Shown: positions 6,322 to 62,995 of the stretch, piece after piece | How the letters are laid out: the number at the start of each line of letters is the position of its first letter | How positions within the stretch are numbered: position 1 is the first letter of the stretch | Assembly (NCBI GenBank): GCA_964016885.1 | Contig: OZ024740.1 | Span: forward strand, 56,978,001 to 57,042,000 | Source: Eledone cirrhosa | Taxonomy: Eukaryota | DNA: 64,000 nucleotides | Direction: 5' to 3' | Translations under genes and position numbers: made by a program | The notes under the pieces: model-generated | The model's input: the letters and a program-made list of their open reading frames with translations, nothing else | The model's database searches: none | What the model was told of the DNA's origin: nothing

Positions 6322-7670
6322 ATACATTATGAAGAGAGAAGAAACATTTAGATATAATTAGTAATAAAATGTATCATACCTAAACTGTTCCTAAATTCCT
6401 CGACTACGTAGTTTCGTGGCATAAACAAAAACAATATATCAAAGACATAGAGTCCCTGCGAGGTCTGCCGACTTATCAAGAGGGTATTAATAACTCCCTC
6501 TGGTCGAGCAATCTTTGAAGTGTGGGGACAACTGGAAAGCTTCCATTACTCATACTTCTCGCCTTCTTCACTACCTCTTCTACGGCCTCGATATGAATGC
6601 CCCCTCCGCCTCCGTGGTATTTTTTTCGTGGTTATAAGAGGCTTAGCTCTGTTTCTCGACCGTTATATCGCGTGACTATCTCCCCCTCCGCCTTTTGGGA
6701 TTCTTTCTCACGTCGTGTAGACGCGTTCTTGAGACTAGTAAAATGAGGTATCCTCTTGATAAGTCGGCAGACCTCGCAGGGACTCTATGTCTTTGATATA
6801 TTGTTTTTGTTTATGCCACGAAACTACGTAGTCGAGGAATTTAGGAACAGTTTAGGTATGATACATTTTATTACTAATTATATCTAAATGTTTCTTCTCT
6901 CTTCATAATGTATTTTTAACTCTGATACTGGTTCAGTCTGGTTCAAACTGAATTGGTCTGTCCCAGTCATTCATTGAGCAACATCGGTGAAGTTGGCACC
7001 CTTAACTCACAGTTGGGTGCGGATACATTCATGTATATATGTGTGTGTCCGCACGTATCTGTGTGTTTCTAAATGTATTAATAACTCCCTCTGGTCGACC
7101 AATCTTTGAAGTGTGGGGACAACTGGAAAGCTTCCATTACTCATACTTCTCGCCTTCTTCACTACCTCTTCTACGGCCTCGATATGAATGCCCCCTCCGC
7201 CTCCGTGGTATTTTTTTCGTGGTTATAAGAGGCTTAGCTCTGTTTCTCGACCGTTATATCGCGTGACTATCTCCCCCTCCGCCTTTTGGGATTCTTTCTC
7301 ACGTCGTGTAGACGCGTTCTTGAGACTAGTAAAATGAGGTATCCTCTTGATAAGTCGGCAGACCTCGCAGGGACTCTATGTCTTTGATATATTGTTTTTG
7401 TTTATGCCACGAAACTACGTAGTCGAGGAATTTAGGAACAGTTTAGGTATGATACATTTTATTACTAATTATATCTAAATGTTTCTTCTCTCTTCATAAT
7501 GTATTTTTAACTCTGATACTGGTTCAGTCTGGTTCAAACTGAATTGGTCTGTCCCAGTCATTCATTGAGCAACATCGGTGAAGTTGGCACCCTTAACTCA
7601 CAGTTGGGTGCGGATACATTCATGTATATATGTGTGTGTCCGCACGTATCTGTGTGTTTCTAAATGTATT
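6322..7670 (+). mobile_element. Non-coding 591-bp unit as a head-to-tail dimer (6484-7074, 7075-7670) plus an inverted partial copy (6322-6483), between (TA)n tracts
   Basis: Near-identical direct repeat with offset 591; 6322-6483 is the reverse complement of ~6752-6913; one hammerhead per unit; no credible ORF. Confidence 0.85.
6751..6838 (+). ncRNA. Type I hammerhead motif, family B (TTGATAA core, long loop II); copies 7342-7429(+), 6397-6484(-)
   Basis: TCCTC-TTGATAA-GT(C)GGCA...TGCCAC-GAAA-CTACGTAG-TC-GAGGA: 5-bp stem I, palindromic stem III, GUC site. Confidence 0.8.
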
Positions 7671-7914
7671 ATATATATATATATATATATATATATATAT
7701 ATATATATATTGTTATACTTGAGGAGGGTCATATTTGTGTAATATTGCCAGAATTAATAACAGAACACACTCACTGTTTGGTTGGTTTTCGCTTCTCGCT
7801 TCTGTGTCTTTTATATCAGTAATCTAACTTACTCGGTCCTCAATGTTGCCATTGACTGACCGACGGTCAAAAATAATACAGATACAATATAGACACAAAC
7901 ACATATATATAGTT

Positions 7915-7960
7915 TATCATAAATCTTTCGTTGCACATCTGCAACATCGTCAGTGGTGTT
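7915..7960 (-). ncRNA. Hammerhead-like motif family C in PLE-C pLTRs (also 12069-12114(-), 33085-33126(+)); stems I and III degenerate
   Basis: CCA-CTGACGA-T-GTTGCA(GATG)TGCAAC-GAAA-GATT-TA-TGAT; copies read GATT or GAAC at stem III, suggesting ancestral GATC (inference). Confidence 0.55.
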
Positions 7961-8196
7961 ATCGTTTCCTCCTGTTGTATTATATGTCTACGCCATTTTT
8001 ATTCAGTCTGTCTATATATTTATTTATTTATTTGCTTGTTTGTTTATTTTATTTTGTCTTCTTTGCGCATGCGTTTGCGTGTGTGTATAGTGTTTTGTTT
8101 GCTGTGTGATGGGTGACTAGTGTGTGTTTATGTGCTTGTTGTTATTGTGTTTGTGTATGTATTTATTTATTTATTTATTTTATTTTATTTACTTAT

Positions 8197-59304: not shown

Positions 59305-59649
59305 TATATATATATATAGTGAAAACTTGGACGGGAACAGAAACAGAGAGGCAGACAAATAAAGTTTATTAGGTTATATATTAATATAAGTTTATCCCGG
59401 GTTCAATCAGGGGTAATCACAGTAAGTAAGGTACTCAATACATAGCAGAGTATAAATATTGGATATAGAAATTGCTTCTACAGGACTAGAACTGTTTCAT
59501 TCAGGAGAAATCATCAGGGCGTCCTGATGACTTCTCCCGAGAAAACAGTTCTAGTCCTGTAGAAGCCATTTATATATATATATATATATATATATGGGGG
59601 GGGGGGGGCATGTGCTCTATCAATATATAACAGTTGAAAATTAGAATGC

Positions 59650-60140
59650 AGTTATATGACCTCCTTTTCAGCCAAGAGACATACCGATACATATTCAAAC
59701 ATTGATACATATTCAAACATTGTGGGTCAACATTCATTACAGAATTTAGAGTGGCAGTACACACTTCGAGAATACATTTATATTAGGAGGTACAATCAAA
59801 AATCAAAAATACAGGTTAAAATACAACATGAAGACAAGCGGTTATATAGTGCAAATGTTATATGTGTGGCACGCATGTGCGTGTTGTTTATATAGTGTGG
59901 CAGAGAGATATGTGTGGTAGAGGCACTTAGGTAGGTAAACAAGAGTGTTAGGATGGTAGATCTGGTGGCAAATTCTTTATATGATTGATATAGTCTGTGT
60001 GTGGAGAATTGGCTGAAAAGGAGGTCATATAACTGTCCATGCATTAATAAATTGCTCCGAAGAATCCAAACCTCGGTTTGGAGGAAACAGCTGTAGGCAC
60101 AATAATGTTTTGAACAGTTCTTTGATTCTTATATTTCATA
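59650..60140. mobile_element. ORF-less PLE-A derivative: inverted pLTR piece (59650-60008) joined to the direct pLTR 3' end with hammerhead (60011-60140)
   Basis: Matches ~1640-2105 with scattered substitutions; same 3' terminus GATTCTTATATTTCATA then (TA)n. Confidence 0.88.
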
Positions 60141-60222
60141 TATATATATATATATATATATATATATATATATATATATATATATATGAAAAGTGTAATT
60201 TTCTACACAAAACGAAGGTTAT

Positions 60223-62995
60223 AGAGAAAATTGAGGTTGGTAATGGCACATGGAATATATAAGAGACAGAATACTTTTTTGTGAAAAAACATAATTTTAT
60301 AAGGTAAGGAAATAATAAAGGGTATAAAAAATGACCGGTTTCGATGGGTCTGCAAAAGCCATCTTTTCAAATGTTGATTAATATTAAGAAAAATTAATAA
60401 TACGAAGAGTTAAAATTTGAGACTTGAAAATTCAAGTATAAAATTCATTGTGGGATTTCATAGCAGTTTTCATCTAGGTAGCAACAACAGGTTGACTGCT
60501 GTGTCCCTTTCTGGTAGTGAATGAGAAGTTATTTGGGGTGTGGGTTATTTTATAAAGGTCAGATTTAGCAATAGCCAGCTGCTGGTCAGTCCCTTCTCTT
60601 ATTTGGAGACTCTTCTCTTATTTGGAGACTCTTTCCACACACACCTCAAAGCCAATTGGAAAAGATATCTAGACGACTGCTTTATCCTATGGCAAGAAGA
60701 CATGAACTCACTTACTACGTTTAAAAACATGATAAACAACATAGATAATAACATACAATTCACAATGGAATCCAATCCTAAGGAATTAGCCTTCTTGGAT
60801 ATTCTCATCTCTGTAATAGACGGGAAATTAGATACAGATATATTCTATAAACCCACAGATTCCAAGCAATACCTCTTTTTCACATCAAGTCACCCAAAAC
60901 ATACAAAACTTAACATTCCTTACAATTTGGCCAAACGTATATGTACCATAGTATCAGATCCACCTAAACGGGAGCAAAGACTAAAGGAACTAAAAGAGCC
61001 TTTCCACTTGAAACTTAAGAGCCTTTCCACTTGAAATAATCAACAATGGAATAGACAGGGCAAAACACCTAAATCCCCATCAACTTAACAATCCAAAACA
61101 GAAAACCACACTCAACACCCTGCCATATGTATCCACTTTCAACCCCAGAAATACCGAAATGTTTGATCACCTACACAAAAACCTCCCCATCCTACTTAAA
61201 GATGTAAAAATGAAGTCTATTCTTGAAACACACAAGATCCTTAAAAGTAAAAGACAACCCAAATCACTTAAACGCATTCTCACTGGACCAAATATACCCA
61301 AACCAATCCTCAACCCTACAGTTACCAAATGTGGTAGAACAAACTGTGGAACGTGCCTCTACCTCACTGAAGGACAAACATTTACATTCAAAGATGGCCA
61401 AACATTTACAGTAAAAAACAATTTCACCTGCAACTCGGAGAACTTGATTTACGCAATAACTTGCGGTGGGTGCAAACACAACTACATAGGACAGACGGGC
61501 ACCTCATTACGCAAAAGAATGACCATCCACCGCCAACAAATCCGGGACGCTAACACAAGAAAAATCCCCTTGAGCAGCCATATTGCGAACTGCGCAGGAA
61601 TGACACTACCCAACTTTAAAATCTTCCCCTTCTACAAGTGCTCAGATTCGTTCACACAACAACAAAGAATAAACAAAGAAAATCTATTCCTTAACAAATT
61701 TAAACCAAAACTAAACGGGTTATCACCCCAATAGAATTGTCATAAAATATAAACACACATACGCACGGAATCACTACTATTAAAGACCAGAGACCAATTC
61801 TGTAGAATCAGGTTTATTCATTGACAGACCATGCCTTTGTGTGACCAACACATCCATGTTAAACCCTGCACGTGCACACACGTATATCTATATATATATG
61901 CGCACACAGAATTATTTTAATTTCACTGCCCCAACTTCTTATATTATGGAAAAAATATATGTGTCTGTATGTATATATATATATATATATTTGAAGGCCA
62001 TTTCTCTGTGTGTGGGTGTATGTATGTGTGTGTGTGTGTGTGTGAGTATGTGTGTGCATGTGGATGTATGTATTGTGTGTGCGTGTGTGTGTGTGTGTGT
62101 GTATGTATGTGGGTATCTGGATGTATGCGTATGTGTATATATATATATATATGCATGTGTGTGTGTGTGTGTGTGTATATATATGTGTGTGTATGTGTGT
62201 ATATATATGTGTGTGTGTGTGTGTGTATGTTTGTATGTGTGTATGTATATATATATATGTGTGTGTGTATGTATGTGTGGGGGTGTGTGTGTGTGTGTGT
62301 GTATATATATATATATATATATATATATATATGTGTGTATATATATATATGTGTGTGTGTGTGTGTGTGTGTATGTATGTGTGTATCTGGATGTATGTGT
62401 ATGTATATATATGTGTGTGTGTGTGTATATATATATATATATATATATATATATATATGTGTGTGTGTGTATGTGTATATATGTGTGTGTGTGTGTGTAT
62501 GTATATGTATGTGTGTGTGTATGTATGTGTGTATATGTATATATATATATATATATATATATATGTATATGTATGTGTATGTATGTGTGGATGAAGGTAT
62601 GTGTGTGTATATTGCTTCCACCCCCTCACTGACCAGCAGCTGGCTATTGCTAAATCTGACCTTTATAAAATAACCCACACCCCAAATAACTTCTCATTCA
62701 CTACCAGAAAGGGACACAGCAGTCAACCTGTTGTTGCTACCTAGATGAAAACTGCTATGAAATCCCACAATGAATTTTATACTTGAATTTTCAAGTCTCA
62801 AATTTTAACTCTTCGTATTATTAATTTTTCTTAATATTAATCAACATTTGAAAAGATGGCTTTTGCAGACCCATCGAAACCGGTCATTTTTTATACCCTT
62901 TATTATTTCCTTACCTTATAAAATTATGTTTTTTCACAAAAAAGTATTCTGTCTCTTATATATTCCATGTGCCATTACCAACCTCAATTTTCTCT
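60223..62995 (+). mobile_element. Neptune-like PLE, 5'-truncated, with 368-bp inverted terminal repeats (60223-60590, 62628-62995)
   Basis: WKRYLDDCF, IQFTME, LAFLD, TDIFYKPTD, SSHP (60591-61034); KCGRTNCGTC, FTC..NLIYAITC..C..YIGQT, RMTIHRQQ, P.LN (61159-61734). Confidence 0.92.
62843..62890 (+). ncRNA. Type I hammerhead, family F (TTGAAAA core); mirror copy 60328-60375(-)
   Basis: AACAT-TTGAAAA-GATGG(CTTTTGCAGAC)CCATC-GAAA-CCGG-TC-ATTTT; weak stem I, palindromic CCGG, GUC site. Confidence 0.72.

Follow-up and report, generated by a model that had tools for sequence, protein, structure and literature searches.

Natural hammerhead ribozymes carrying U3-A8 in place of the C3-G8 core pair were reported by Perreault in 2011 (PMC3088659), where such variants are called active in vitro, citing Przybilski and Hammann 2007. 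They were also described in hammerheads of Penelope-like retroelements (PLEs), with about 1,300 matches in Schistosoma, by Cervera in 2014 (PMC4209133). The U3-A8 core is thus in print both for hammerheads generally and for those of PLEs, and the novelty implied by the first-pass annotation of the sequence studied here finds no support. PLE minimal hammerheads reportedly cleave poorly in vitro, dimers included (PMC4209133), and are described as forms without a contact between stems I and II (PMC6155905). In a type III mutant library (PMC9901934), only the G3-C8 swap restored activity, other double changes of the region remained low, and G-C was the 3-8 swap best tolerated in vitro. Pairing of C3 with G17 is considered a trap (PMC3884650), and Naiad PLEs are reported to have spread without canonical hammerheads (PMC8557442).

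We analyzed a stretch of 64,000 nucleotides from Eledone cirrhosa (contig OZ024740.1, positions 56,978,001 to 57,042,000), hereafter the window. Its GC content is 24-45%, microsatellites are abundant, and it is a cluster of PLEs and their non-coding derivatives, whose repeats were found by self-BLAST. ORFs for PLE reverse transcriptase (RT) and GIY-YIG endonuclease are present, as are 5'-truncated copies in inverted orientation and flanking (TA)n, in the same arrangement as that described for PLEs in PMC8557442. Within this cluster we observed hammerhead motifs with their stems, in a PLE-type context and with positions 3 and 8 covarying one to one. Very probably, these are type I hammerheads of PLE terminal repeats and non-coding derivatives in which U3-A8 has taken the place of C3-G8, and selection for self-cleavage likely maintains the swap. 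The features discussed below are as follows.

6322..7671 (+): entire family B insertion, between (TA)n arrays
6398..6483 (-): family B hammerhead of the inverted 5'-truncated copy; U3 6479, C17 6402
6751..6838 (+): family B type I hammerhead, by descriptor and folding
7342..7429 (+): family B hammerhead of the second tandem copy, 591 nt further downstream; U3 7347, C17 7424
12955..13030 (+): family D type I hammerhead, canonical-looking, by descriptor, folding and Rfam alignment
15589..15669 (+): U3-A8 hammerhead H, by descriptor, absent from the first-pass annotation; single copy between (TA)n arrays
16120..16160 (-): F1-related copy, U3 at 16152, with GCAA where GAAA is expected (A13C)
24244..24250 (+): C3-A8 core of a family K copy, the sole single mutant of the census
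43748..43783 (-): F1 minimal hammerhead, by descriptor
44638..45105 (-): PLE GIY-YIG endonuclease fragment adjoining F1; it shares 54% identity with the endonuclease of F2
60328..60375 (-): F2 hammerhead, inverted copy; U3 60370, within the inverted pLTR 60223-60590
60591..61734 (+): F2 PLE ORF, 5'-truncated and frameshifted, with the RT end, a CX4CxxC linker and a GIY-YIG endonuclease
62843..62890 (+): F2 minimal hammerhead, by descriptor

The UUGANAA cores that had been proposed for families B, D and F are all present, as TTGATAA at 6756-6762 and 12972-12978 and as TTGAAAA at 43780-43774(-) and 62848-62854. Each heptamer sits in a hammerhead: stem II, GAAA and stem III come next, then a UH cleavage site, and last a 3' strand that completes stem I by pairing. 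In family B (6751..6838), stem I (6751-6755/6834-6838) encloses the UUGAUAA core (U3 6756, A8 6761), a long stem II (6763-6819), GAAA at 6820, a stem III formed by a 10-nt palindrome (6823-6832) and a GUC site with C17 at 6833. The palindrome forms no hairpin alone and has a self-pairing energy of -12.9 kcal/mol. The B insertion consists of an inverted 165-nt copy and two head-to-tail units of 591 nt that are 99.8% identical, both containing a whole type I hammerhead and no ORF longer than 86 aa; judging from this organization, it may be a retrozyme-like or solo-pLTR tandem. The head-to-tail joint recurs in the public runs X1, X3 and X8, and no alternative letter reaches at least 2% of contig depth at 6756 or 6761 (X3, n=1,178 contigs; X1, n=1; X8). 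X1 holds one self-closing contig of 621 nt (591+30), from a run of unstated type and with a joint identical to that in the window DNA. Folded as a circle, the B unit has a z of -6.1 against 60 shuffles. Pairing was kept in all three stem II variants, which is not significant (p=0.24).

The family D hammerhead combines its UUGAUAA core with a 4-bp stem II capped by a CAAUAA loop, GAAA at 12993, a hairpin stem III, C17 at 13008 and an extended stem I interrupted by an internal loop. A further U-A family, H, has the core UUGAAAA at 15598-15604, a U-U at 10.1/11.1, GAAA at 15633, a 9-bp stem III and an AUA site with A17 at 15660; its fold has a z of -3.1, and in the predicted fold A17 pairs with U3. 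The A17 of both H and F1 could pair with U3 in this way, resembling the C3-G17 trap (PMC3884650), an observation that counts against the explanation we favor. Avoidance of A17 among the U3 families was not significant (p=0.27). Folding recovered the three helices, with ends in stem I, for B, D and H. An internal loop of HH9 type together with loop II could provide a stem I-stem II contact in D; B, H and F show no evident contact of this kind. No linked PLE protein match and no autonomous partner ORF were found in the modules of B, D and H, although B, set in (TA)n, has the inverted-plus-tandem layout typical of PLEs.

What had been described as a single family F has genuine U3-A8 cores but comprises two families at the DNA level (43780 versus 62848/60370, alignment z=1.2), linked through related endonucleases; that family list had also omitted the H motif at 15598(+). 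F1 has UUGAAAA, a 3-bp stem II, GAAA at 43760, an ACCGGU palindrome and A17 at 43751. It lies about 860 nt downstream of the PLE endonuclease fragment, and its assignment to a pLTR is by proximity to and strand of that fragment only. F2 has the same core, a 5-bp stem II, GAAA at 62876, the ACCGGU palindrome, C17 at 62885 and a weak stem I, and it is placed in a pLTR by the adjoining ORF (60591-61734) and the inverted pLTR. This ORF matches Pfam GIY-YIG (E 1.9e-6) and has 19 full-length homologues containing both RT and endonuclease (41-58%). A metagenome scan for F2 relatives returned one short match only, and a search of viral contigs returned none. In the F motifs stem I spans about 2-3 pairs, by descriptor only, and the palindromic stem III, which forms no hairpin alone, self-pairs at -8.3 kcal/mol. 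The minimum-energy monomer folds of F1, F2 and L005, a U-A element from another genome, are not hammerheads, which, like the lack of Rfam matches for B and H, speaks against our preferred explanation. So does the A13C change: the further F copies that had been noted do carry U3-A8, but three F-like copies (16152-, 22055- and 23308+), out of 11 U-A copies in total, have GCAA for GAAA and still spread.

Since TTGANAA occurs at 72 sites and CTGANGA at 42 on the two strands of the window, the bare heptamer is uninformative. We therefore rely on a descriptor scan that allowed any letter at positions 3 and 8, with a chance level from 1,560 dinucleotide shuffles. At scores of at least 28, the scan returned 11 C3-G8 matches (0.01 expected), seven U3-A8 matches (0.045 expected) and none of the remaining 14 combinations (about 0.40 expected). 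All seven of these U-A motifs lie at repeat ends of PLE-type insertions, and U-A motifs follow the element's sense strand wherever an ORF is present. At scores of at least 22, combinations other than C-G and U-A numbered two against about 2.5 expected, and 0.28 U-A matches were expected. Among the 150 of 159 whole-window Rfam matches listed, no hammerhead family appeared, and these matches were miRNA models driven by microsatellites.

Our census, which excludes chance-level rows and rows inside ORFs or microsatellites, comprises 37 copies in 14 families: 25 copies with C3-G8, 11 with U3-A8 (about seven insertions), one with C3-A8 and none with U3-G8. Left out were 323+/2902- (C-G, score 22), 33468- (A-U, 23), 49843+ (C-C, 27), 43439- (A-G, 20), 30452- (U-G, 20), four matches scoring below 20, and seven one-deviation matches (326+, 2899-, 28262+, 28988-, 30120-, 34115+ and 40079+). 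By family, nine are C-G and five U-A, and the absence of mismatched families compares with 6.4 expected if positions 3 and 8 were independent (0/14, Fisher p=5e-4). The two positions thus change together, as had been claimed, and single mutants are far from being as common as double ones; the lone C3-A8 copy is itself decayed, with GAAG for GAAA and mismatches in stem III. Given this lone decayed single mutant, the absence of U3-G8 and the U3-A8 core of B in three runs, selection on the 3-8 pair is supported. The covariation also suggests Watson-Crick pairing of positions 3 and 8 in the U-A copies. The other core bases (U4 G5 A6 A9, G12 A13 A14, A15.1-U16.1, H17) are intact in eight of the 11 U-A copies (three of B, D, H, F1 43780 and two of F2), the remaining three being those with A13C. 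As anticipated by the first-pass annotation, a CUGANGA search misses the U-A motifs, here five of the 14 families, and two more families are lost through U4C.

The U-A swap likely keeps these motifs capable of cutting their own RNA, because G8 supplies a 2'-OH (PMC6155905) and the base pair mainly serves to position G8. By analogy with described elements, cleavage of a tandem-repeat transcript would fall after position 17. B and F would be cut mostly as dimers joined by the palindromes of stem III, and D and H could each fold without a partner. The unit set free, 591 nt long in B, might then be circularized, or reverse-transcribed by a PLE RT/endonuclease into (TA)n sites.

Could the motifs be chance matches in low-complexity, AT-rich sequence? 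We consider this extremely improbable. TTGANAA is indeed common, and F1, with a score of only 23, lies near the chance range, but U-A matches are in excess at high scores and lie at PLE-type repeat ends, on the sense strand where an ORF is present. The shuffle scan rules out a chance origin for B, D, H and F2; F1 relies on its context and its likeness to F2. It is also improbable that the U3-A8 motifs are dead or near-dead relics, in which C-to-T and G-to-A changes accrued in AT-rich DNA after function was lost while the elements spread without cleavage. The low GC content of the window, the A13C subfamily with its three copies, the weak stems I of F and the Naiad precedent (PMC8557442) all fit such decay, as does the low activity of doubles other than G3-C8 in the mutant library (PMC9901934), which also weighs against our favored explanation. 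However, neutral decay predicts about six mismatched families where none was found, every other core base is kept in B, D, H and F2, and in X3 the core of B does not vary at the 2% level. Selection for self-cleavage remains our preferred reading of the swap.

How often the swap arose is a separate matter. Among 17 PLE elements examined in other genomes (18 loci), 12 had a hammerhead by the ORF: 11 C-G, one U-A and none mismatched. Excluded were weak matches (score of 27 or less) that lay inside an ORF or antisense to one, or whose stems were poor; several of these had mismatched positions 3 and 8. L014 (C-G, U4C, score 19) and L005 (U-A, score 23) were retained because of their position. No clear motif was found in L001, L003, L006, L016 or L018. 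The U-A share is higher in the window than in these elements, though not significantly (p=0.17). Probably, the change from C-G to U-A, which consists of two transitions, arose one to four times among these families. A single swap in one old PLE lineage ancestral to all U3-A8 families, which would make them one event with no convergence, is a real possibility, if not quite an even one. The F1 and F2 endonucleases share one starred clade (100/99), and the test does not reject a tree that sets F1, F2 and L005 jointly apart from six C-G elements (p-AU 0.464). B, D and H lack an ORF by which to place them, and with one origin the family covariation test yields only p=0.1. On the other hand, U-A families align with each other no better than with C-G families: only F1 and F1b align, and the next pair, D-F1 (z=4.2), is comparable to the C-G/U-A pair A-F1 (z=4.9). 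The architectures also diverge (long stem II in B, canonical D, long stem III in H, minimal F), and the best protein tree requires two state changes, though across an unresolved fork. Of the earlier proposal of selection in three independent families, selection on the pair is supported, and independence of origin is not demonstrated. We see as rather unlikely the bolder scenario of repeated flips, up to four, from C-G to U-A and never to G-C among the retroelement lineages of one genome, with B an abundant 591-nt circular retrozyme with a U-A core. If true, repeated flips would offer a natural replicated test of how a catalytic pair crosses a mismatch valley via two transitions. They would likewise test whether the U3-A8 core lowers cleavage, position 17 being adjusted alongside so that a U3-A17 trap is avoided.

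These results provide clean comparative support for selection acting on the active-site 3-8 pair in PLE and retrozyme hammerheads, despite low activity in vitro. The U3-A8 families are further examples of a swap already published for PLEs; as the variant and the search gap appeared in 2011 and 2014, what is gained is three constructs for testing (B, D and H) and no new principle. Of known models, the closest to D is Hammerhead_HH9 (RF02275, clan CL00010), to which D aligns across the whole model (positions 1-77) with 21.3 bits (E 0.0031), below the gathering score of 52, and the Rfam scans of B and H matched no hammerhead model. B resembles the non-LTR retrozymes of animals (Cervera and De la Pena 2020, PMC7229834; Li et al. 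2026) in being non-coding and head-to-tail, with one type I hammerhead per unit, and in its predicted strongly self-paired circle. Its 591 nt fall inside the 51-972 bp unit range of Li et al. (bioRxiv 10.64898/2026.07.22.740005) and exceed the 170-400 nt circles described in PMC7229834; its core is U3-A8, and its circle is putative. The survey of Perreault et al. (PMC3088659) describes the same compensatory change in several natural examples, such cores being rare there and cryptic mutant repeat copies set aside, whereas here they make up a third of the families in one cluster. Closely similar are the minimal hammerheads in pLTRs of Cercyon PLEs from Schistosoma mansoni (Cervera and De la Pena 2014, PMC4209133), as described there: they have the same core covariation and PLE repeat context, a type I topology and a palindromic stem III. 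Cleavage by the U-A motifs is putative in both sets. The U-A share is likewise similar (about 1,300 U-A versus about 2,000 standard matches in Cercyon, 11 of 37 copies here). Unlike in Cercyon, the U3-A8 core of this window occurs in four distinct architectures, D and H having a full hairpin stem III.

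The U3-A8 motifs are real: TTGATAA at 6756 and 12972, and TTGAAAA at 43780 (minus strand) and 62848, were read directly from the sequence as the first-pass annotation had quoted them. Since bare heptamers are common in the window, the evidence lies in the stems rather than in the seven letters. When scanned with a descriptor in which positions 3, 7 and 8 could be any base, all four sites fell within complete type I hammerheads. Compared with 1,560 dinucleotide shuffles scanned with the same descriptor, the window held 11 C3-G8 matches scoring at least 28 (0.01 expected) and seven U3-A8 matches (0.045 expected), with none for the other 14 combinations (about 0.40 expected); at a score of at least 22, other combinations gave two matches, versus about 2.5 expected.

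A census by homology search from each motif, with no selection on positions 3 and 8, recovered 37 hammerhead copies in 14 families from the window: 25 C3-G8, 11 U3-A8, one C3-A8 and no U3-G8. The annotation's proposal that both positions change together agreed with this tally, single mutants contributing 1 of 37 copies versus 11 for U3-A8; in the lone C3-A8 copy (24244), GAAA and pairs of stem III were gone as well. Nine families were C-G, five U-A and none mismatched, against 6.4 mismatched expected under independence (p=5e-4). The 11 U-A copies amount to about seven insertions, inverted and tandem copies not being independent.

U-A hammerhead families in the window
Family B: three copies, one insertion
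Family D: one copy
Family H: 15598, one copy, absent from the first-pass list
Family F1: four copies
Family F2: two copies, one insertion

Other core variants were also seen. U4C cores (CCGAAGA, CCGAUGA) with intact C3-G8 occur in both Hydra-like Penelope-like element (PLE) families (1204-, 2021+, 6194+, 60057+, 33568-, 38484+) and in an outside locus (L014:857); U4C is a known viroid hammerhead variant, and these cores too would escape CUGANGA searches. A U-U mismatch at 10.1/11.1, noted by Perreault 2011 as a tolerated natural variant (PMC3088659), opens stem II at 13829-, 14786-, 14947+, 57492-, 57805+ and 15598+. An F1-related non-coding subfamily that has spread (16152-, 22055-, 23308+) carries A13C (GCAA for GAAA), the palindrome being lost too at 23308+, and is likely a dead ribozyme.

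In public sequencing runs, the family B consensus was not CUGANGA, because the core was invariant at the 2% level in X3 (1,178 contigs; no alternative letter at 2% of depth or more at U3, A8 or other core bases), and X1 (one contig) and X8 (seven) agreed over covered positions; about 1% of a fourth run, X22, yielded no matching read. The B unit (6484-7074) occurred in whole or part in 20 listed runs (16 studies, 17 organism codes), with half or more of its words in 10 of the 20; it showed only six differences from X1, and its summed depth in X3 exceeded 100,000. So wide an occurrence could stem from close relatives, from horizontal transfer, from very high expression or from contamination. Protein relatives of F2 were found in 17 loci of prokaryotic genome bins (L002-L018); these loci are probably DNA of host animals that ended up in the bins. 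Of 17 outside elements scanned (L001 included), five showed no clear motif, while in the other 12 a hammerhead lay next to the ORF (11 C3-G8, one U3-A8, none mismatched); the lone U3-A8, in L005, folds weakly.

The first-pass argument for selection needs separate origins of the U-A families. In DNA alignments the U-A families were no closer to one another than C-G/U-A pairs, except F1 and its GCAA subfamily, and their architectures were unlike; this shows divergence rather than independence. Separate origins did not follow, as a single U-A clade was not rejected. The F1 and F2 endonucleases (54% identity) group with five database proteins in a single starred clade, in which the hammerhead state is known for F1 and F2. 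The best protein tree implied two 3/8 changes, and a constraint joining F1, F2 and L005 was not rejected (p-AU 0.464; F1 fills only 16% of columns). Families B, D and H had no ORF with which to place them in the tree. Under a single U-A origin, the family covariation test gave p=0.1. One to four origins among the window families are possible; our literature search, whose coverage missed two key papers, found no paper counting independent origins.

Motif, stems, PLE context and covariation were observed directly, and the U3-A8 motifs are likely functional, as predicted from sequence. Self-cleavage after position 17 would release a unit-length RNA. G8 acts via its 2'-OH (PMC6155905), so that replacing the pair with U-A can leave the geometry unchanged. 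The stems III of B and F are fully palindromic, forming no hairpin alone but pairing as dimers (-12.9 and -8.3 kcal/mol), the mode described for PLE hammerheads (PMC4209133). Families D (z=-2.2; weak match to Rfam HH9) and H (z=-3.1) fold as monomers. The non-coding B unit measures 591 nt from site to site and, folded as a circle, pairs strongly with itself (z=-6.1), which fits a non-LTR retrozyme (PMC7229834); a closed 621-nt B contig in X1 fits a circle but would fit a tandem array too. B copies in the window and X3 contigs stop at two places (6913, 7074), each running into (TA)n, which suggests two preferred priming sites. Against full activity, a type III hammerhead library recorded rescue of the pair only by G3-C8 (PMC9901934), PLE minimal hammerheads were slow in vitro (PMC4209133), and A13C occurs in 3 of the 11 U-A copies. 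H and F1 carry A17, which can pair with U3, paralleling G17-C3 pairing (PMC3884650); the tendency of U3 families to avoid A17 was not significant.

The AT-rich window, which has the look of animal genomic DNA, has many microsatellites and several PLEs.

PLEs in the window
2274-4773: Hydra-clade features; DKT motif, C-terminal endonuclease, intact CxCX5C linker
34457-36467: Hydra-clade features; DKT motif, C-terminal endonuclease, CxCX5C linker not intact
8197-11907, minus strand: CX4CxxC linker and GIY-YIG endonuclease
About 30400-32800: CX4CxxC linker and GIY-YIG endonuclease
44638-45105, minus strand: CX4CxxC linker and GIY-YIG endonuclease
60591-61734: CX4CxxC linker and GIY-YIG endonuclease

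Craig et al. give the CxCX5C linker as a Hydra-clade feature (PMC8557442), and the insertions share with PLEs described there an inverted-truncated-plus-tandem layout between (TA)n arrays. PLE-type insertions are very dense (37 hammerhead copies, 14 families, 64 kb), and a large number of them are nested within (TA)n. The PLE ORF at 9913-11907 (minus) bears a long asparagine-rich repeat insert in its N-terminal part. Also present are near-perfect long inverted repeats (1-1382/1843-3224, 23486-23925, 14440-15255, 57189-58124), non-LTR retrotransposon ORF-like fragments (16849-17364, 42040-42689, 48051-48949, 50153-51231; weak RVT_1 at 50153) and a repeat about 190 nt long that is dispersed through the window (25735, 41898, 48502, 49595, 52294, 55716, 55931). 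A second non-coding tandem repeat between (TA)n arrays (58327-59304, 618-nt period) has a hairpin near 58810-58830, and no hammerhead was detected in it.

U3-A8 is an already described hammerhead variant, to which the window adds members. Natural examples were first reported by Perreault et al. 2011 (PMC3088659). In PLE hammerheads of Schistosoma mansoni, where their first descriptor had missed the variant, Cervera and De la Pena (2014) retrieved about 1,300 U3-A8 versus about 2,000 standard motifs (PMC4209133), a share close to that in the window.
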